A stretch of 64,000 bases of DNA from positions 1,280,001 to 1,344,000 of the forward strand of contig CAVVUN010000015.1 of assembly GCA_963751455.1 (NCBI GenBank). Reading direction: 5' to 3'. This DNA comes from Nitrospirota bacterium. Lineage in GTDB: Bacteria; Nitrospirota; UBA9217. The translations under genes and the position numbers were made by a program. The notes below the pieces were generated by a model. It was not told the origin of the DNA. It ran no database searches and saw nothing but the letters and a program-made list of their open reading frames with translations. This document shows, piece after piece, positions 11,573 to 47,830 of this stretch (its first letter is position 1; the number at the start of each line of letters is the position of its first letter).

Positions 11573-11598
11573 GAACCTTTAGGGTCAAGTCTTTTTCG

Positions 11599-11627
11599 TT
11601 GCATTTCATTCTGATTTCTGCTACAGT
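11599..11627 (+). promoter_or_regulatory. Putative sigma70 promoter for a leaderless transposase mRNA
   Basis: TTGCAT-17bp-TACAGT, 6 nt before the ATG; no SD; the -35 lies inside the TIR. Confidence 0.55.
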
Positions 11628-11633
11628 CGCCCC

Positions 11634-12503
11634 ATGGCCCGACCTCTAAGAATAGAATATGCCGGTGCGGTCTATCACGTAACATCCCGTGGCAACGAGA
11701 AAAAGCCCGTATTCAAAAACGACCAGGACCGCGAAAACTTTCTGAACACGGTCCAGCACGTCAACAAGCGGTACAATTGGATCTGTCATGCGTATTGCCT
11801 CATGACAAATCATTACCACCTTCTTATCGAGACCCCGGAAGGCAATCTTTCTCTCGGTATGCGCCAATTGAACGGCGTCTATACGCAACTTTTCAACAAG
11901 TATCACGGCAGGTCCGGGCATTTATTCCAGGGCCGGTATAAGGCTATCTTGATCCAGAAAGACAGTCATCTCCTTGAGGTCTGCCGATATGTGGTTCTAA
12001 ATCCGGTAAGAGCAAGGATTGTCGAAGCGCCGGAAGACTGGAAGTGGTCCAGTTACCTTGCGACGGCGGGTAAGGCAGAACCTCATCCCTGCCTCACAAA
12101 GGACTGGGTGCTCGGTCAATTCAGCAGAAAACGAGATAAGGCGGAAAAAGAGTATCGCCAGTTCGTTCAGTGGGGTATCGGAAAGAAGACGATCTGGACG
12201 GAAGTGCGAGGCCAAGCGCTTTTAGGTGAGGACGATTTTGTAGATAAACTTACGGATTATCTCAAAAAGCACAAGGACATTCCCGAAATTCCCCGGAGTC
12301 AGCGATATTCGACTCGACCGTCGCTTGCCGTTTTGCTGCCCGACTCAGTCATGAACAATCATCGCAAACTGATGAAAAAGGTGTCTGAGGCCGTGGAAAA
12401 ATACGGTTATCATCAGAGTGAACTAGCCCGTCATGTGGCTGTCCACTACTCGACGATCAGCCGCTGGCTTCGTGAATACGAAAATGCAACGAAAAAGACT
12501 TGA
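11634..12503 (+). CDS. Y1/HUH transposase (RAYT-like) with C-terminal HTH
   Basis: YHVTSRGN, AYCLMTNHYHLL (HUH), LFQGRYK, YVVLNPVRA, WSSY; HTH QSELARHVAVHYSTISR. Confidence 0.93.
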   Translation: MARPLRIEYAGAVYHVTSRGNEKKPVFKNDQDRENFLNTVQHVNKRYNWICHAYCLMTNHYHLLIETPEGNLSLGMRQLNGVYTQLFNKYHGRSGHLFQGRYKAILIQKDSHLLEVCRYVVLNPVRARIVEAPEDWKWSSYLATAGKAEPHPCLTKDWVLGQFSRKRDKAEKEYRQFVQWGIGKKTIWTEVRGQALLGEDDFVDKLTDYLKKHKDIPEIPRSQRYSTRPSLAVLLPDSVMNNHRKLMKKVSEAVEKYGYHQSELARHVAVHYSTISRWLREYENATKKT

Positions 12504-13448: not shown

Positions 13449-13730
13449 ATGACGAAAACGATAACCGCAACCGAGGCTGTTCGGAAGTTTTCCGAGATAC
13501 TCAATTCCATAAAATACACGGGGAATGACTATACGATCATGCGGGGAGGCAAGCCGGTTGCGACGATCCGTCCGGCGGAAACCCACGCAAAGGAATTGAC
13601 CCTGGGCGATCTGCCGGGATTGGTGCGATCGCTTCCCGCGCTCGGCGATGAAGCGGAACGATTCAAAAAAGACATCAGGGAAGCCCGTAAGCATCAGCCC
13701 CATTTGCCGGAGAAAGACAAATGGGCGTAA
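13449..13730 (+). CDS. Phd/YefM-family antitoxin
   Basis: ITATEAVRKFSEILNSI...IMRGGKPVATI; overlaps the toxin. Confidence 0.88.
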   Translation: MTKTITATEAVRKFSEILNSIKYTGNDYTIMRGGKPVATIRPAETHAKELTLGDLPGLVRSLPALGDEAERFKKDIREARKHQPHLPEKDKWA

Positions 13731-14128
13731 TATTCGACACGAGCGTCCTGATCTCCCTTGAGCGCGGTTCGCACGGACTTGAGAGGCTCGCCTCAGGCAG
13801 GGAAAACGAGGCCTTCGGTATCAGCGTTGTCGCTGTTTCCGAGCTCTTGCATGGCGTTCATCGTGCGGACTCAGAGAAAAGGCGCCTCACGAGGGGAGCG
13901 TTCGTCGAAAAGATTATACAGACCTTCCCGCTCTATTCGTTTGACTTGAACGCAGCGAGAATCTATGCAAAACTTTGGGCCAATCTCGCAAAAAAGGGAG
14001 TGACCATAGGCGCTCACGACCTTATGATCGCTTCAACGGCAATTGCCCTCGGTTTCTCCGTGGTTACTACTGATGTGCGCGACTATGGCAAGGTTAAGGA
14101 AGTGACTGTCGAAAAGTTCCTCGTATGA
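13721..14128 (+). CDS. vapC: VapC/PIN-domain toxin
   Basis: IFDTSVLI, SELLHG, HDLMIASTA, VVTTD. Confidence 0.9.
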   Translation: MGVIFDTSVLISLERGSHGLERLASGRENEAFGISVVAVSELLHGVHRADSEKRRLTRGAFVEKIIQTFPLYSFDLNAARIYAKLWANLAKKGVTIGAHDLMIASTAIALGFSVVTTDVRDYGKVKEVTVEKFLV

Positions 14129-14388: not shown

Positions 14389-14464
14389 CCAAAGTTTCTT
14401 TTTCATAATAAAGCCCGACGCCCTATCCAGCCCGCCCCTTCGCTGTTTTTGATTGAAACTTAAT
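14389..14464 (+). repeat. 76-bp direct repeat, copy 1
   Basis: Identical to 17573-17648. Confidence 0.9.
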
Positions 14465-14467
14465 TTG

Positions 14468-15415
14468 AACTTCTTAGGGTCAGGTCCATACTGTTGGACT
14501 TTTGTTTAAACTTCTGTTAAACTCCCCTTTATGGCTCGTCCATTACGCATAGAATACTCCGGTGCAGTTTATCACATCACCAACCGGGGCAACGATAAAA
14601 AAGCCGTATTCAAAGATGACCAGGACCGAGAGATATTTCTCAAAATCCTTGCCTTCGTCAACAAACGCTACCACTGGCTTTGTCACGCCTACTGTCTCAT
14701 GGACAATCATTACCACCTCATGATAGAAACGCCGGATGGAAACCTTTCCCTCGGCATGAGGCAGCTAAACGGTGTTTATACTCAGGCGCGGAACAAACGC
14801 CACAACAAGACCGGGCACCTTTTCCAGGGCAGGTACAAGGCCATCCTTATTCAAAAGGACACTCATCTTCTTGAAGTCTGCCGCTATGTGGTCCTTAATC
14901 CGGTCCGCGCTGGGATGGTCGAAAAGCCCGAAGACTGGAAATGGTCCAGCTACCGGGCCACAGGTGGGAAGGAAACAGCTCATCCCTGTCTCACAACGGA
15001 CTGGATACTAGGACAGTTCAGCCGAACGAGGGCCAAGGCAGAGAAAGAATATCGCCAATTTGTGAAATGGGGGATCGGCAAGGAAACCATCTGGAAGGAG
15101 GTCAAGGGCCAAGCCCTTCTCGGCGAAGATGACTTTGTTGACAGCCTTGCCGATCATCTCGGAAGGCATAAAGATATTCCCGAGATCCCAAAGAGCCAGC
15201 GCTACGCCAACAGGCCGGCACTTGAAAAAATATTCACTCAGAGTATACTGGACAACAAACTTACGCGGGACAGAAAAATTGCCGAGGCTGTCGAGAAGTA
15301 CGGATACACTCAGCGTTCAATTGCTGATCACCTCAGCGTGCACTCCACATACGTGAGCAGAATTCTGTGCGGACACTACAAAAGGTAAACAGTATGGACC
15401 TGACCCTAAGAAGTT
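14468..15415 (+). mobile_element. TIR-bounded Y1/HUH (RAYT-like) element, type 2 copy a
   Basis: Perfect 28-bp IR AACTTCTTAGGGTCAGGTCCATACTGTT at 14468-14495 and 15388-15415. Confidence 0.9.
14531..15388 (+). CDS. Y1/HUH transposase (RAYT-like), type 2
   Basis: Same motifs as 11634-12503 (MDNHYHL, LNPVRAG) with a diverged C-terminal HTH; TGGACT-17-TAAACT 7 nt upstream of the ATG. Confidence 0.93.
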   Translation: MARPLRIEYSGAVYHITNRGNDKKAVFKDDQDREIFLKILAFVNKRYHWLCHAYCLMDNHYHLMIETPDGNLSLGMRQLNGVYTQARNKRHNKTGHLFQGRYKAILIQKDTHLLEVCRYVVLNPVRAGMVEKPEDWKWSSYRATGGKETAHPCLTTDWILGQFSRTRAKAEKEYRQFVKWGIGKETIWKEVKGQALLGEDDFVDSLADHLGRHKDIPEIPKSQRYANRPALEKIFTQSILDNKLTRDRKIAEAVEKYGYTQRSIADHLSVHSTYVSRILCGHYKR

Positions 15416-15430: not shown

Positions 15431-15717
15431 GTTGCCGAACACGGGGATGCGCTCCTCTGTGTTCGCTACAGATACGACGAGCAGAGCCGCACACGCTAAA
15501 AACCATAGAACTGATCATCGAATGAAAACCCTGGATGCCGACCTCACGCCGTTTCAACGATAATACACCGGTGCCTGTGCGAATTGAATATAGTGATAAG
15601 GCTTTGCGGGAAAAGGCAAAGGCGGCGCATGGAAAATGGGATCCGAAGACACGTGCATGGTATATTCAGTTCGGAAAAATCAAAGGAACCGAATTGGAAA
15701 AGTTTATAATATCATAA
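15431..15717 (+). pseudogene. Degraded small protein with a DUF5710-like C-terminus
   Basis: VAEHGDALLCVRYRYDEQSRTR*/KTIELIIE*KPW...KAKAAHGKWDPKTRAWYI, with stops and a frameshift; homologous remnant at 47620-47830. Confidence 0.7.
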
Positions 15718-15735
15718 ACCTGAGGCAACGAGAAA

Positions 15736-15849
15736 GCTTATGATACTATAAACAGCCAAAGCTTAGAATAGCATAAACCGGCTTATTCTATCATAAACTT
15801 GTTTGTCATATCATAAGCCGGTTTCCGAATAGAGATTAACTGGTTAACC
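15736..15849 (+). promoter_or_regulatory. Phased palindrome array ending in GTTAACC (attI-like)
   Basis: Units GCTTATGATACTATAAAC, GCTTAGAATAGCATAAAC, GCTTATTCTATCATAAAC and GTTTGTCATATCATAAGC (last three at 20-bp period); GTTAACC at 15843. Confidence 0.6.
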
Positions 15850-15859
15850 GGGGAAAATC

Positions 15860-16588
15860 ATGAGCACACCTCTCGAAGACAAATCGACATTAGAAGACAT
15901 ACGTAATCGATTTGACAACGATGTTGACCGTTTCTCAAGTCTCGAAACTGGCCAGGCAGCAACTATCGATGCTCCGCTCGCCTTGGAGTTGATTACCCGA
16001 GCTGCGATCTCGTGCACCGCAAACATTCGACGTGTACTTGATATCGGATGTGGTGCTGGCAACAGCACTCTCAAACTTCTTCAGTCTGTTTCTCCCTTTG
16101 ATTGTGACCTCATCGATTTGAGCCAACCCATGCTCGAAAGGGCACATGCCCGGATTGCTGCAGTTAATTCGGGTGCGATCAGAATCTTTCAAGGCGACTT
16201 TCGCACAATCAATTTACCCGACCAAGGATATGACGTCATCTTGGCTGCGGCTGTTTTACATCACTTGCGAGATGATCAAGACTGGGAAATAGCATTTCGC
16301 AAGATTTATAGGCTGACAGCCCCAGGTGGCAGCGCCTGGATAACGGATTTGGTGTCCCATGAAACTGCGGCGGTCCATAGCATGATGTGGGAGCGGTATG
16401 AAGTATATTTGCGCTCACTGGGCGGAGAAGAGTATAAGAATAAGGTCTTTGCGTACATCGACAAGGAAGACTCACCACGCCCGGTCACATATCAACTAGA
16501 TTTGCTTCGTCGTGTAGGATTCGAGCGCGTTGAGCTTTTACACAAAAATTCATGTTTTGCTGCCTTTGGAGCTGTAAAAAGTCATTAA
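15860..16588 (+). CDS. Class I SAM-dependent methyltransferase (cassette-like)
   Basis: VLDIGCGAG motif I; AVLHHL; starts 10 nt after GTTAACC. Confidence 0.9.
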   Translation: MSTPLEDKSTLEDIRNRFDNDVDRFSSLETGQAATIDAPLALELITRAAISCTANIRRVLDIGCGAGNSTLKLLQSVSPFDCDLIDLSQPMLERAHARIAAVNSGAIRIFQGDFRTINLPDQGYDVILAAAVLHHLRDDQDWEIAFRKIYRLTAPGGSAWITDLVSHETAAVHSMMWERYEVYLRSLGGEEYKNKVFAYIDKEDSPRPVTYQLDLLRRVGFERVELLHKNSCFAAFGAVKSH

Positions 16589-16612
16589 CCACTGGGTCCG
16601 CTGGCGAAAAAC

Positions 16613-16668
16613 GGTCAACGAATCGTCCCACGCCGACCGCTACGCGGCGTGTGAACTCGTCGTTGGAA
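16613..16668 (+). repeat. attC-like site
   Basis: GGTCAAC...CACGCCG accgctacg CGGCGTG...GTTGGAA hairpin just after the methyltransferase. Confidence 0.65.
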
Positions 16669-16956
16669 ACGCCGTGTCCATAGCAAACAATGAATTGGCC
16701 GCCAAAATAAAAAAATAAAGATTCTCTCGACAGGTGCTGAGGGCTGTCAAAGTGAAGTCTATGTCGTCCCATCTCAGAAGACGGAGCCGCTTGTCTATCA
16801 CTCGCCTAACGGAAAACGCCGTGTTCTACAGTTGTCTCGGATGAGGAGATATGGCAAACATTTCAAGGATGCATGGCATATGCTGAAATAAATCGTGGGC
16901 TTAAGGTCGGGACTGCAAATCATATTTCGGGGTGAGCCCGTCAAATCAGATAACAT

Positions 16957-17015
16957 ATTCAACGAGCGGATTGAGCGAGGGGCGGCGCAAAATGCCTGCC
17001 CCCCTCTGGTTATTC
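16957..17015 (+). repeat. Degenerate attC-like site
   Basis: ATTCAAC...GAGGGGCGGC..GCCTGCCCCCCTC..GTTATTC. Confidence 0.4.
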
Positions 17016-17150: not shown

Positions 17151-17354
17151 ATGGCGCACCTCAAAGAAAAAGTTATCGAACTTATCAAATCTCTTCCCGA
17201 AGACGCGACCCTGGAAGATATTCACTATCATCTTTACGTTCGGGAAAAAGTTGAGCATGGCCTAAAAGCAATAGACGAAGGCCGCATTGTCTCACAGGAA
17301 GAAGCTGAAAAAAGGGTTGCGGAATGGTTAAAGTCAAGCCCTCGCGGTGCCTGA
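17151..17354 (+). CDS. Antitoxin of a RelE/ParE-type TA pair
   Basis: KEKVIELIKSLPEDATLEDIHYHLYVREKVEHGL..IDEGRIVSQEE; GGAGG RBS. Confidence 0.8.
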   Translation: MAHLKEKVIELIKSLPEDATLEDIHYHLYVREKVEHGLKAIDEGRIVSQEEAEKRVAEWLKSSPRGA

Positions 17355-17572: not shown

Positions 17573-17648
17573 CCAAAGTTTCTTTTTCATAATAAAGCCC
17601 GACGCCCTATCCAGCCCGCCCCTTCGCTGTTTTTGATTGAAACTTAAT
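17573..17648 (+). repeat. 76-bp direct repeat, copy 2
   Basis: Identical to 14389-14464. Confidence 0.9.
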
Positions 17649-17729
17649 CCGATTTAATCGATAATATACCGATACCATGAAACGTGATCTGGAACACTCC
17701 CCGGTTTATATTTCACAAAGAGACAAACG

Positions 17730-18149
17730 ATGAGCAACCTGGACGTTCGTTGGAAACAACGCTTCAATCATTATCAAAAAGCGCTCCGGCAGCTTGCAGG
17801 ATCCGTGGAACTGGCGAGGCAGCTTCCCTTGTCAGAGCTTGAGAAACTAGGTCTCATTAAGGCCTTTGAATTCACGCATGAGCTGGCATGGAATGTGATG
17901 AAGGATTATTTTGAATACCAGGGCACGACCTCAATCATGGGTTCCCGCGACGCATCACGTGAAGCATTTCAAAAAGGACTTGTTGCTGACGGTGAAGGGT
18001 GGATGGAGATGCTCCAGAGCAGGAACCAGACGTCGCATACCTATAACCAAAATGTGGCAGACGAAATTGCCGGGAAAGTGACGACGCTGTATTGCAAGCT
18101 GTTCCTTGAGTTGGAAAAAAGTCTTTTGAAGATGAAAGACAGCGAGTGA
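17730..18149 (+). CDS. HEPN/HI0074-family nucleotidyltransferase substrate-binding protein (type VII TA toxin-like)
   Basis: RWKQRF, FEFTHELAW, and RNQTSHTY (Rx4H). Confidence 0.9.
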   Translation: MSNLDVRWKQRFNHYQKALRQLAGSVELARQLPLSELEKLGLIKAFEFTHELAWNVMKDYFEYQGTTSIMGSRDASREAFQKGLVADGEGWMEMLQSRNQTSHTYNQNVADEIAGKVTTLYCKLFLELEKSLLKMKDSE

Positions 18150-18493
18150 CGGTGCTGCCGATGAAATATGGCCTGAATGACAATATAATCGTAAAGATCA
18201 ACTCAATCTTTTCAAGATGGCCCGGTGTCGAGCAGGTCATTCTGTACGGATCACGCGCCAAGGGAAATTATCGTGACGGCTCGGACATAGACCTTACGAT
18301 AGTCGGTGAAACTGTAACGCAATCGGACATGCTGAAGATTGCAAACGAACTCGATGATTTGCTGTTGCCGTATAAAATCGATCTGTCACTGATGCGTCAA
18401 ATTGAGGATAAAGCGGTCATTGAGCACATAAAGCGGGTTGGTGTGGTTCTTTATGAAAGGGCATCGTATGCGCCATCGAGGACTGTTGAATGA
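18146..18493 (+). CDS. Minimal nucleotidyltransferase (MNT) antitoxin
   Basis: LYGSRAKG...SDIDL; LPYKIDL. Confidence 0.9.
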   Translation: MTVLPMKYGLNDNIIVKINSIFSRWPGVEQVILYGSRAKGNYRDGSDIDLTIVGETVTQSDMLKIANELDDLLLPYKIDLSLMRQIEDKAVIEHIKRVGVVLYERASYAPSRTVE

Positions 18494-18583: not shown

Positions 18584-20101
18584 CCTTAACGTTGCATAAA
18601 AAATCGCTATGCGGCCCGTTGCAATCGGTCGAGATAATGCAACAACCCCTTTTTGACTCGTGGATTGGCGTTCATTGTCAGAGTTAGCTTGCCGCCGGGC
18701 TGTGTCAGGCGGCCGGCACGCTGTATAAGTGTTCTTCGCAGGGTATTGGGCTCCGTGAACTCCCAAAGAGCGGCCCGTTTTTCGGTGGTGCCCCGGTCGG
18801 GTTCATGCGCGACCATGTGAAGTTCCTTCAGGAGATTGTGCGAGATGATCGCCGACATCATGTATAGCTGATTTCCGTGCAATCTTCTCACAGCCACGTA
18901 ATCCATATTGCACTGGGACTTTAGCTCTCCAAGGATGTTTTCCTGAGAACCGCGGCCCTGATGGAAGTTCAGGACTTTCTTCACCGTCGTTGTTTTGTTT
19001 GTAACGATCACCTTGAAGTCAAACCCGTATTCGTGCGGCGTGAACATATCAAGCTGCACCGGCTCTTTTGACTGCTTTTTGGCTTTTTGACGAATAAAAA
19101 GAAAGCGGAACCGGCTGTCCCAGCTTTTCGGCTTCCAGGGTGTGTCGAGATAGGAAACAACGGAATCGTAACGCCTCCAGCGTTTTTTGGCTTCGATCAT
19201 GTGTTTGAGTTCGGAGAACCGCTCAAAGGGGACCGAGATGGTGAACTCAATTCCGTCGCGCTCCAGCGCGCCGACGATTTCATCGCTGAAGAAAGCGCTG
19301 TCCATGCGCACTTCGATGACGATATCCGAACAGGTTGCACGCACCTGTTCGATGCACGCAAGGATGAACGCCCGGGCGCCGTTGGAATCATGTACGTTAC
19401 CCGAACGGGGCAGGACGTCAAGGACCATGCCCAACTGAGCGATCATGCAGAAAAGCGGATAATAGCTTCTCTGCCCTTTTTTCTTTTTGTTGAAGCCTAC
19501 GGCGGCACCCTCAGCCCATCGGGAGGTCGAGAGCACAGAGCCGTCGAAATCAAGCGTCACGCGACGAAGCTTCAAACCCTGTATGCGGGAGAGCGACATT
19601 TCCCGGCAGAACCGACGAAGATTCAAAATGTCCTTTGCGTCGACCGTCATCAATGCCCGGCTGATCGTGGAAACGTCCGGCATTTTTCGGAGGCCCAGAA
19701 GACGAAGCGCCATAAGGTCGTCCTGATAGTATTCGATGTCGCGGAGTTTCCGATAACCCAGCATCAGATGCACGATCAGCACGAGCGTAATGACGTGATT
19801 GCCGAAGATGGCGCTCGACGGTAGATGATCAAAGCAGCTTTTCAAGCGGGCTTTCAGATTCAGCTTCGTGAAGAATGCCTGAATGATAGCAAGGCCCGCG
19901 TAGGAAGTGAGCTGTTGATCCTCGAACTTCAGTTCCGGTATTTTGTGAACGCGGCTTAGAACCTGTGCTTTACTGGACTTCACTTTCAGTGGCCTCCTGC
20001 TTGAGTGAAATAATGATATCGCAGGAGCACTATATCCAATAATGAAGCCTGTTTCCAGAGGTTTCTGCATATTTTCAAGAAATGTTTATGCAACTACAAG
20101 G
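18584..20101 (-). mobile_element. IS1380-family insertion sequence
   Basis: IRs CCTTAACGTTGCATAAA / TTTATGCAACTACAAGG; TTTA duplication at 18580-18583 and 20102-20105. Confidence 0.88.
18607..19983 (-). CDS. IS1380-family DDE transposase
   Basis: LTSYAGL, TLDFDGSV, SYYPL, VRMDSAF, RGSQEN..GELK; likely GTG start with GGAGG RBS. Confidence 0.9.
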   Translation of the reverse strand: MKSSKAQVLSRVHKIPELKFEDQQLTSYAGLAIIQAFFTKLNLKARLKSCFDHLPSSAIFGNHVITLVLIVHLMLGYRKLRDIEYYQDDLMALRLLGLRKMPDVSTISRALMTVDAKDILNLRRFCREMSLSRIQGLKLRRVTLDFDGSVLSTSRWAEGAAVGFNKKKKGQRSYYPLFCMIAQLGMVLDVLPRSGNVHDSNGARAFILACIEQVRATCSDIVIEVRMDSAFFSDEIVGALERDGIEFTISVPFERFSELKHMIEAKKRWRRYDSVVSYLDTPWKPKSWDSRFRFLFIRQKAKKQSKEPVQLDMFTPHEYGFDFKVIVTNKTTTVKKVLNFHQGRGSQENILGELKSQCNMDYVAVRRLHGNQLYMMSAIISHNLLKELHMVAHEPDRGTTEKRAALWEFTEPNTLRRTLIQRAGRLTQPGGKLTLTMNANPRVKKGLLHYLDRLQRAA

Positions 20102-40556: not shown

Positions 40557-40889
40557 ATGCTGTTTTCGGGACCAGTGTCATGTGAATGATCCTTGTTGGT
40601 TCGATGAAGAAGGGATGCGACCTGAAACTTTGGGGCTGTTGTGGAGTCCCAAGTGTCAATAGAGATCACCCGGCTAACTTATTTGCCGTGCCGACGTTCT
40701 CTCGCCAGGATACAGATTTTGGAATTGGCAGATTGAATTTCTGCAACTTTAAGTCAAATCGAGTATATTTTACACTTTAAACCCTGTCAAGATAAAGTTG
40801 TATGGAATTTGAAAAATAGTCAAGGCGATTATATGGCTGATTTAATTGAAGATTAAGGGGGCAGGCGAGGGGATGGCCCGTCGGTCGGG

Positions 40890-43413: not shown

Positions 43414-44355
43414 GAACATTAGGGTCAAGTCTTTTTCGTTGCATTTTCGTATTCACGAAGCCAGCGGCTGATTGTAGAATAGTGGACAGCCACATGGCGG
43501 GCTAGTTCACTCTGATGATAACCGTATTTTTCCACGGCCTCGGACACCTTTTTCATCAGTTTGCGATGATTGTTCATGACTGAGTCGGGCAGCAAAACGG
43601 CAAGCGACGGTCGAGTCGAATATCGCTGACTCCGGGGAATTTCGGGAATGTCCTTGTGTTTTTTGAGATAATCTGTAAGTTTATCTACGAAATCGTCCTC
43701 ACCTAAGAGCGCTTGGCCTCGCACTTCCGTCCAGATCGTCTTCTTCCCGATCCCCCACTGAACGAACTGGCGATACTCTTTTTCCGCCTTATCTCGTTTT
43801 CTGCTGAATTGACCAAGCACCCAATCCGTTGCGAGGCAGGGATGAGATTCAGCCTTACCCGCCGTCGCAAGGTAACTGGACCACTTCCAGTCTTCCGGCG
43901 CTTCGACCATCCTTGCTCTTACCGGATTTAGAACCACATATCGGCAGACCTCAAGGAGATGACTGTCTTTCTGGATCAGGATAGCCTTATACCGGCCCTG
44001 GAATAAATGCCCGGACCTGCCGTGATACTTGTTGAAAAGTTGCGTATACACGCTGTTCAATTGGCGCATGCCTAGGGAAAGATTGCCCTCCGGGGTCTCG
44101 ATAAGAAGGTGGTAATGATTTGTCATGAGGCAATACGCATGACAGATCCAATTGTACCGCTTGTTGACGTGCTGGACCGTGTTCAGGAAGTTTTCGCGGT
44201 CCTGGTCGTTTTTGAATACGGGCTTCTTCTCATTGCCACGAGATGTTACGTGATAGACCGCACCGGCATATTCTATTCTTAGAGGTCGGGCCATGGGGCG
44301 ACTGTAGCAGAAATCAGAATAAACTGCAACGAAAAAGACTTGACCCTAAAGATTC
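43414..44355 (-). mobile_element. TIR-bounded type 1 RAYT-like element, copy b
   Basis: Ends GAACATTAGGGTCAAGTCTTTTTCGTTGCA / TGCAACGAAAAAGACTTGACCCTAAAGATTC. Confidence 0.9.
43425..44294 (-). CDS. Y1/HUH transposase type 1, copy b
   Basis: Five amino-acid differences from 11634-12503 by eye. Confidence 0.93.
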   Translation of the reverse strand: MARPLRIEYAGAVYHVTSRGNEKKPVFKNDQDRENFLNTVQHVNKRYNWICHAYCLMTNHYHLLIETPEGNLSLGMRQLNSVYTQLFNKYHGRSGHLFQGRYKAILIQKDSHLLEVCRYVVLNPVRARMVEAPEDWKWSSYLATAGKAESHPCLATDWVLGQFSRKRDKAEKEYRQFVQWGIGKKTIWTEVRGQALLGEDDFVDKLTDYLKKHKDIPEIPRSQRYSTRPSLAVLLPDSVMNNHRKLMKKVSEAVEKYGYHQSELARHVAVHYSTISRWLREYENATKKT

Positions 44356-44727
44356 CTCTTATACCGGCCCTGGAATAAATGCCCGGACCTTCCGTGATAC
44401 TTGTTGAAAAGTTGCGTATAGACGCTGTTCAATTGGCGCATACCGAGAGAAAGATTGCCTTCCGGGGTCTCGATAAGAAGATGGTAATGGTTTGTCATGA
44501 GGCAATACGCATGACAGATCCAATTGTACCGCTTGTTGACGTGCTGGACCGTGTTCAGGAAGTTTTCGCGGTCCTGGTCGTTTTTGAATACGGGCTTTTT
44601 CTCGTTGCCACGGGATGTTACGTGATAGACCGCACCGGCATATTCTATTCTTAGAGGTCGGGCCATGGGGCGACTGTAGCAGAAATCAGAATGAAATGCA
44701 ACGAAAAAGACTTGACCCTAAAGATTC
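44356..44727 (-). pseudogene. Truncated type 1 element, copy c
   Basis: Left end plus first 103 codons, cut at FQGRYK by the left end of copy b. Confidence 0.9.
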
Positions 44728-44729
44728 TC

Positions 44730-44860
44730 CTTCTATGCGTAATGGACGAGCCATAAAGGGGAGTTTAGCAGAAGTTTAAACAAAAGTCCAACAGTATGGA
44801 CCTGACCCTAAGTAGTTCTCGTTCTAAGTAGTTCCTAAGTAGTTCTGACCCTAAGTAGTT
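44730..44860 (-). mobile_element. 5' end of type 2 copy b plus stuttered end repeats
   Basis: Encodes MARPLRIE; carries the type 2 left end; CTAAGTAGTT x4, twice preceded by CTGACC. Confidence 0.88.
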
Positions 44861-47119: not shown

Positions 47120-47503
47120 TTATTTTTTATAATCAATGCTAATCGTATAATCAAAGTGAACCCAGCAAGGATGACCACGGACTTTGTTTTGGCAGATTAT
47201 CTGGCCAGAGAATGAAGACGTGTTGTTCAGGATGAGTTCGTTGATTCTATTCCCAAGGTCAAAAGAACCCAAACAATCGACATGCGGACAGTCGTATTCG
47301 AATATTGCCGTGCTATCAACGTCGTACTTGTGCGGACCGCCACGCTTTTCTTTCCAACCACCAGTTTCATTCAAGGAAGTCACATATGAAACACTAATAG
47401 TCGCGACATTCGGATATATTTCCTTTATGGTTTTAGAATAAGTCATCATGAGATGCTTTCTTTCAGCACGTGATTGCTCGGGCGTCATCTTCTTTTTTCT
47501 CAT
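47120..47503 (-). CDS. Hypothetical Cys-containing protein (first cassette)
   Basis: CPHVDC...C...C; starts shortly after GTTAACC. Confidence 0.7.
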   Translation of the reverse strand: MRKKKMTPEQSRAERKHLMMTYSKTIKEIYPNVATISVSYVTSLNETGGWKEKRGGPHKYDVDSTAIFEYDCPHVDCLGSFDLGNRINELILNNTSSFSGQIICQNKVRGHPCWVHFDYTISIDYKK

Positions 47504-47520
47504 TTATAGTTTTTCCTGAA

Positions 47521-47608
47521 GGTTAACAAGTTATTGACTATAAGCAAATGGTTTATGTTAGCATAAACAAGTTTATGATAGCATAAACCGGTTAATGGTA
47601 TCATAAAC
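47521..47608 (-). promoter_or_regulatory. Phased palindrome array ending in GTTAACC (attI-like)
   Basis: GTTTATG-N4-CATAAAC-type units at 47551, 47571 and 47591; GGTTAAC at 47521. Confidence 0.65.
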
Positions 47609-47619
47609 TTGTTTGGGTT

Positions 47620-47830
47620 TTATGATATAATAAATTTTTCCAATTCTGTATTCCTGATTTTTCCAAATTCGATATACAGGCGCGAGTCTTAGGATTCCAC
47701 CTCCCCTGTACAGCCTTGGCCTTTCCCTCAAGTCCTTGTCGCTATACCCTATTCGGACCGGCACCGGACGCTGAGCGGCCGGAACCCACGGAGTTCTTTC
47801 GATGATCCGTTCCACCGTCTTGAGCTGAGT
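47620..47830 (-). pseudogene. Second degraded copy of the DUF5710-like gene
   Basis: LKTVERIIERTPW...PVPVRIGYSDKDLRE, with frameshifts; homologous to 15431-15717. Confidence 0.7.

Follow-up and report, generated by a model that had tools for sequence, protein, structure and literature searches.

The window examined here, a 64-kb stretch of a Nitrospirota genome (contig C15:1280001-1344000), carries at 15431-17015 a compact block (site 1) in which the remnant of a small gene is followed by an array of palindromes, an integron attI site, a methyltransferase cassette and, probably, a second cassette in decay (Table 1). The small gene has lost about 15 N-terminal codons at the border of a Y1 transposase element, and its frame is further broken by a frameshift near 15495 and a TGA at 15523-15525. 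Over gene, array and attI the block retains 81% identity (337/418 nt) to an intact homologue, and this identity stops directly after GTTA. Of the sequence-only reading of this block, the decay of the gene holds, whereas its likeness to DUF5710 turned out to be weak, confined to the C-terminal half and below the cut-off. The palindromes hold as well, but they number five rather than four; their spacings are 34-25-20-20, so that the proposed 20-bp phasing is found only in the last three units. The first unit overlaps the stop codon of the small gene, and 24 bp separate the last one from the crossover, written here as G↓TT. With up to three mismatches allowed in 14 positions, the palindrome consensus has 12 matches in the 64-kb window, nine in its two arrays and three isolated.

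Table 1. Features of the two platform copies and the adjoining Y1 element (window coordinates).
Feature	Position	Strand	Basis
Y1 (HUH, PF01797) transposase element, gene 14531-15388	14470..15413	+	perfect 18-bp inverted repeat at both ends (14470; 15396-15413)
Companion small-protein pseudogene, gene 15431..15717	15431..15717	+	comparison with intact homologues
Palindrome array, five 18-bp units starting at 15702, 15736, 15761, 15781, 15801	15702..15818		GTTTATG half-sites around 4 variable bases
attI simple site (crossover G↓TT with G at 15843; L box degenerate, spacer 5 bp)	15819..15849	+	core matrix, alignments
Cassette 1: SAM-dependent methyltransferase gene 15860-16588 (242 aa) + attC	15844..16662	+	Pfam, covariance model, contig ends
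attC of cassette 1, 56 bp, 30.4 bits, E 2.9e-6	16613..16668	+	covariance model
Probable decayed cassette 2: frameshifted ORF, then broken attC (~16957-17015)	16663..17015	+	sequence reading, covariance model
Second platform copy (site 2): small-gene remnant, more decayed; four palindromes 47635-47551; attI core G 47527	47503..47830	-	alignment, core matrix
Site 2 attC, 41.2 bits	46516..46575	-	covariance model
Further site 2 attC, 50.6 bits	42161..42226	-	covariance model, structural heuristic

The methyltransferase gene had been read as followed by an attC-like hairpin, and this hairpin was accepted by the covariance model; it shows the R''/L''/L'/R' organisation of an attC (about 55-140 bp, extrahelical bases, after a single ORF), and its R'' is the reverse complement of the attI-core 7-mer at 6/7 positions. 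A second hairpin at about 16957-17015 gave no match to the model and lacks the L' arm. Rfam returned 0 matches for the 64-kb window. No IntI match was obtained within the window either, and site 1 has no adjoining intI. Promoter-like sites at site 1 are at the chance level (3 against 2.5 expected), the region 5' of the small gene having been replaced by the Y1 element.

The Y1 gene scores 50.4 bits against PF01797 (cut-off 23), and the element abuts the truncated 5' end of the small gene. The suggestion that it sits where intI might have been survives in part: the closest homologues have intI about 300 bp upstream, starting 310 bp upstream in locus L045, and a related Y1 element cuts intI on contig C1, which makes displacement of intI at site 1 plausible. 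As a part of the platform, however, the element was rejected; it is a passing mobile element, and site 2 has none. Y1 (HUH) elements with GGGTCA(A/G)GTC-type terminal inverted repeats lie in the window at 14470-15413, 11579-12503 and 43419-44810 and at C1:555316-556138. The genome has 29 ends of this type; one of the elements interrupts intI, and several others are situated in cassette arrays. IS200-like elements do not usually have terminal inverted repeats. The block formed by Y1, platform and cassettes is itself flanked by a ~77-bp direct repeat (14389-14465 and 17573-17649). Around the platform there are also a Phd/PIN pair (13449-14128), an antitoxin-like ORF without a Pfam match (17151-17330), a nucleotidyltransferase/substrate-binding pair (17730-18493) and a DDE_Tnp_1_4 transposase (18607-20070).

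The same architecture had been claimed on the minus strand at 47.5-47.8 kb, and it is real: site 2 is 72% identical to site 1 over 233 nt and has four units, an attI core and two attC sites. Both window copies are relics, with the small gene broken in each. A CALIN is defined, in the available text of PMC4889954, by at least two attC and no nearby intI; with no intI near either site, site 1 has one significant attC and one broken, and site 2 has two. Five array-type platforms occur in this genome, none of them beside intI, together with at least seven attI sites of another type. No intact intI was found in the genome, its three near-full intI genes all being interrupted. Scoring 150 of 2,165 candidates gave 73 attC matches at E<=1, of which 68 have E<0.001. 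Both intact small genes of the genome head arrays of the G/CCATATA type, so the GTTTATG arrays of the window probably have no cognate protein left. Platforms C1:5706 and C2:651942 share an insertion of about 125 bp in the array, and their first cassettes differ. The second attI type (C1:553556, C1:612400, C1:397387, C2:446637, C3:358557, C15:273850 and C15:1070391) has no small gene; a long inverted repeat of about 30 bp ends there some 24 bp before G↓TT, at the place where the last array unit ends in array-type platforms. A remnant of the promoter region that precedes this second type is present on the minus strand of the window at 40700-40800, with no intI adjoining.

That the window site is an integron attI can be regarded as nearly certain. 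A core matrix was built from loci other than those of the window, and when every GTT on both strands was ranked with it, the window sites came first and second, at 26.6 (site 2) and 25.0 bits (site 1), the next candidate reaching 13.5. The matrix located the core in 68/91 loci, where conservation drops after GTTR. At site 1 a 5-bp spacer separates the GTT core from an inverted, degenerate L box upstream, in keeping with the 4-5 bp given for attI in the available text of PMC12614218. Identity of at least 80% in the 100 bp that precede G↓TT is shared by 42 locus pairs; in 38 of these the sequences beyond it are unrelated, and the other four are duplicates. The R'' of the first attC agrees with the attI 7-mer in 36 matches over 15 loci, against 20.1±3.7 when permuted (0/10,000 permutations); one further locus, with its first attC 3.7 kb away, was left out. 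Contigs of sequencing runs are informative at site 1 itself: in two other runs the methyltransferase cassette follows a different sequence and begins precisely at 15843, and in a third run two contigs depart from the platform after 15845 into other sequence. No run contained half of the sequence words searched for, and no RNA run was among those listed.

Around homologous loci, a structural heuristic counted 21 cassette-strand attC sites over 167,965 bp of downstream sequence, against 0 over the 241,632 bp upstream (12 and 2, respectively, on the other strand); it is insensitive, matching in only 12/43 loci with at least 1.5 kb downstream, and the attC at 16613-16668 is one of its two sites in the 64-kb window. 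The covariance model, home-made from 19 attC sites outside the window (three of them from this genome) and distinct from the model of IntegronFinder, matches the window at 16613-16668, 46575-46516 and 42226-42161. In metagenome loci all 12 of its matches are downstream on the cassette strand; they come from 9/80 mostly short loci, and two pairs are duplicates. The sole close homologue of the methyltransferase among 300 other genomes has no attC after it. Unrelated platforms (L048, L050, L076, L113, L115, L131 and L219) carry the same sequence after G↓TT (GTTGAACTAA), in some cases followed by a short hairpin, and this start is possibly a recurrent gene-less cassette.

In the homologues of the small gene a module is conserved in the order small gene, array, attI, cassettes. 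The small protein was found in 37/301 genomes of the phylum (this one included), in 32 of the 63 others of the family and, at E<=1e-15, in 8/301 genomes of Geobacter's phylum; its family comprises 2,697 clusters at 50% identity. The homologous loci closest to the window are labelled Nitrospirota. The gene had no match in plasmids, searched with the distant query L042, or in phages, and viral contigs yielded one partial locus. Of the best 80 of 421 genome loci, 75 include 1.5 kb upstream; there, a divergent intI within 2.5 kb occurs in 33, a lexA-like gene in 17 (both in 5) and neither in 30. Distant relatives identified 574 metagenome loci, and among the best 80 of these intI adjoins in 32, divergent in 15 and in tandem in 17 (25/53 among loci with 800 bp upstream). 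In L180, L181, L202, L212, L224 and L227 the tandem intI ends 22-29 bp before the small gene, so that intI, small gene, attI and cassettes all point in the same direction. The lexA-like gene upstream of the module, present at C2:654568-655152 and in the 17/75 genome loci, is often separated from it by toxin-antitoxin or GxxExxY genes; this position may be a preferred chromosomal location.

Arrays of at least three units accompany 127/159 loci, against 2/477 shuffles and 1/145 upstream controls, and their unit spacings peak at 20 (187), 25 (82), 45 (47) and 24 and 35 (24 each). They are present in 29/38 genome loci without intI and in 29/31 with it. The intact locus L045 has the half-site GTTTATG, and a GCATCTA type occurs as well. 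The distance from the last unit to GTT is 23-24 bp in 53/68 genome loci and 21-24 bp in 39/56 metagenome loci. The earlier proposal of an attI type with a palindrome array and a dedicated accessory gene is thus upheld as regards linkage of small-gene homologues to intI, to arrays and to attC sites downstream on the cassette strand, with protein binding suggested by covariation. The module is not required for an integron, as most integrons of the family have attI without it. In gene-less intI loci of the family attI typically lies 170-260 bp from the start codon, and an array was found within the first <=345 bp in 0/17 of them, 20 having been tested and three set aside with the gene further out. 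Mapped on a quick IntI tree, the module requires four changes and occurs in two deep clades. In L148, whose integrase groups within those of module-bearing loci, gene and array are both missing, and the same array motif accompanies integrases about 41% identical, in both orientations. L045 and other Nitrospirota/Geobacteraceae intI genes encode a ~160-aa N-terminal extension ahead of the usual IntI, both with and without an array. Dependence of the array on this extension was ruled out, since arrays accompany short integrases too.

The small protein, about 115 aa long, is basic (median pI 9.9 over 121 proteins), and its gene ends about 125 bp before the crossover. Its model shows two small alpha/beta domains (pLDDT 95, pTM 0.61), with residues 2-7 in the first strand. 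Foldseek gave no match to the model at E<=0.001, and the best VIA-align result (Z 4.2, rmsd 2.9, 54 aligned) is no clear fold match; the fold searches used two models, of which the first was of low quality (pLDDT 72). Arm-DNA-bind_5 is matched by 2/94 members (best E 0.016), and PHROGs returned two weak single-member matches. DUF5710 (PF18974) is approached by the two intact copies of this genome with 20.9 and 21.6 bits against a cut-off of 26.5 (E 2-3e-4), in the C-terminal part only, and is matched at E<=0.1 by 40/94 relatives, again in the C-terminal half only. The available text of PMC11233732 describes DUF5710 in a Rep_3 fusion in Acinetobacter.

Covariation between protein and DNA makes it probable that the small protein binds the array. 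Across 23 loci with all parts present, the attI core follows IntI (partial rho 0.65, against 0.24 for the small protein) and the array motif follows the small protein (0.44, against 0.12 for IntI), a double dissociation in which the core tracks IntI although it lies further from intI than the array does. The core was taken as the 20 bp before G↓TT, with one core (L046) mis-picked, and the motif comparison excluded the unit that overlaps coding sequence together with the residues encoded by it. Gene and array adjoin, so linkage contributes to the correlation of motif and protein. Among the long integrases, which form one clade, the motif correlates with IntI as well (partial 0.39, p 0.005-0.006), and kin are not independent of each other.

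The covariation resolves to single residues and bases among 99 proteins less than 85% identical. Lys or Arg at residue 12 goes with G at position 1 of the motif in 74/75 cases, His, Pro, Asp or Ala with non-G in 19/22, and Asp with C in 5/5; Leu5 goes with A at position 3 in 80/83, against 0/9 for non-Leu, and Arg7 with G at position 2 in 3/3. Pairings of Arg or Lys with G and of Asp with C are classical protein-DNA contacts. Disjoint nearest-neighbour contrasts point the same way, 22:0 with one tie and 8:0, and position 1 shifts by 0.66 on average. The residue-12 contrasts also shift positions 2 (19:3) and 5 (16:6), so part of the signal is general or inherited. An independent-pairs test on well-supported branches offers only two pairs, with which significance is unreachable, and the best tree needs 16 and 17 changes. 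The junk motifs of L102 and L232 were kept in the dissociation, residue-base and pairs tests and dropped in the contrasts and the arm-pairing test.

The reading that accounts best for these observations, which we put at close to an even chance, is that the integrase-less attI of the window belongs to a widespread add-on module, present here in decayed form, whose small basic protein binds the phased palindromes and organises attI for recombination with incoming cassettes. Each 18-bp dyad would be bound on double-stranded DNA by a dimer of the small protein, with bases read through the first strand and a loop (residues 5, 7 and 12). About five dimers would cover a stretch of some 120 bp up to 21-24 bp short of the crossover and would bend or hold the site, a coat that may do the job performed at other attI sites by DR1/DR2 and host factors. 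A promoter probably lies upstream of the small gene, which would place gene, array, attI and cassettes on one transcript. Integrase-less copies would be served by IntI in trans, although loss of intI may instead postdate the last capture. An architectural role at attI is suggested by the fixed distance to the crossover across distant integrases and by the positions of the last two units, -42 to -25 and -62 to -45, which correspond to those of DR1 (-32 to -26) and DR2 (-51 to -45) as read from the attI1 7-mers of L246, although this match may be coincidence. Further arguments are the lack of cassette-strand promoter-like sites within arrays and published proposals, in the text available, that accessory factors are necessary for attI x attC recombination at sites without DRs.

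The strongest competitor of the architectural role is transcriptional control, although we consider it rather unlikely. The array-bound protein would then act as a roadblock or loop 3' of its own stop codon, limiting read-through into the cassettes as well as its own level. The array does lie in the path of the transcript, its first unit overlapping or following the stop codon; cassette-strand sigma-70 matches are found upstream of the small gene in 18/68 loci; and all the covariation between protein and motif fits this explanation equally well. Such matches overlap the array in 0/69 loci, however, and a roadblock requires neither a fixed 21-24 bp to the crossover nor a 25-20-20 pattern. Improbable, in turn, is a gatekeeper function in which the bound protein, as long as it is not displaced, denies IntI access to attI or determines the direction of recombination. 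It draws on the same covariation, on the last unit lying about 12 bp from the L box and on the module being dispensable in sister integrons, as a brake would be; yet cassette turnover is high at module-bearing platforms, as the 38/42 differing pairs indicate, and the tandem order of intI and small gene in 17/80 metagenome loci, at a distance of 22-29 bp in six of them, points to joint expression with the integrase.

Less probable still is that IntI itself binds the palindromes as extended DR1/DR2, with the small gene hitch-hiking. One common half-site, read outwards, does resemble the GTTRRRY box, the units occupy DR1/DR2-like positions, and in one clade the motif partly tracks IntI. The units are dyads, though, whose least conserved positions are those that would correspond to G and T in GTT, and the half-site of the window type does not fit GTTRRRY. 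The array is absent from all 17 gene-less intI loci, close relatives included, and the motif tracks the small protein, as in L045 and L064, where the integrases are 83% identical, the small proteins 58% identical and the array motifs different. We give very little weight to the module being a selfish or neutral passenger, or the palindromes being sites of a host regulator such as the LexA-like protein often encoded upstream: many copies are solo or decayed and lexA-like genes do precede 17/75 genome loci, but two motif types in one genome each match their own small-gene type, the motif changes with residues of the small protein, and its placement with respect to G↓TT is kept in loci with distantly related integrases. 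Least probable of all is a role of the palindromes as hairpins of RNA or single-stranded DNA, such as antitermination signals recognised by the protein. In the leader transcript a 7-bp stem closed by a 4-base loop could form from each unit, but the arms form fewer Watson-Crick pairs (3220 of 4116) than with shuffled partners (3287±12.5), top-strand G-U pairs, at 185 against 170.5±5, being only slightly raised, and left and right arms have near-identical base profiles. This lack of pairing beyond shuffled level speaks against selection for RNA hairpins and fits double-stranded dyad sites.

Small DNA-binding proteins at phased sites near a crossover core are familiar as accessory factors of tyrosine recombinases, such as lambda Xis, P2 Cox and ArgR/PepA at cer. 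No clear sequence or fold match to these, or to arm-binding, RHH or HTH folds, was found for the small protein, and the sites here are palindromic. A close parallel is attI1 of class 1 integrons, which likewise combines a G↓TT simple site and a degenerate L box with accessory sites upstream (PMC3146285, PMC8946536, PMC8191803, in the text available). There DR1 and DR2, described in these sources as topological filters, end at -26 and -45, and the last two palindromes here end at -25 and -45. The accessory sites of attI1, however, are two direct GTTRRRY repeats, in contrast to the four to seven dyads found here, which covary with a separate protein encoded by a gene for about 115 aa between intI and attI. 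attI1 also has ORF-11 or ORF-17 between Pc and the first cassette; in the accessible part of PMC8876359 these are peptides of 11-18 aa acting in translational coupling, whereas a folded two-domain protein is predicted here. For the attIA of Vibrio cholerae, where DRs are missing, attI x attC recombination has been proposed to need accessory proteins, the host factor being left unidentified in the available text (PMC8191803, PMC8946536); here a candidate factor is encoded in the platform itself, together with an ordered array. Sedentary chromosomal integrons and CALINs similarly have promoterless cassettes bounded by attC, no nearby intI and many arrays per genome (PMC4889954, 10.1101/2022.02.06.479319, as far as available), but the integrase-less arrays described here keep a recognisable attI and a platform gene of their own, and site 1 has only one significant attC.

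The integron platform as described in the available literature consists of intI, Pc and attI, and according to the accessible text on IntegronFinder attI is not searchable in most integrons (PMC4889954). A description of the module for integrons was not found in the full-text literature; subscription journals were mostly outside this coverage, and an earlier description is possible. Somewhat short of an even chance, in our estimate, is the wider proposal that in a large class of environmental integrons the platform has a fourth component, a self-encoded DNA-binding protein of unmatched fold that uses a residue-to-base code, coats a phased array at attI and controls capture, with the modules acting as integrase-free satellite sites served in trans. 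If true, attI x attC recombination would for the first time have an accessory factor encoded by the integron itself. The copy in the window is only a relic, and the module to which it belongs is a concrete and widespread candidate for such a factor, with a testable code in which one residue swap should switch one base. The module also provides a marker for attI sites, and it suggests that some CALINs are live satellite platforms.
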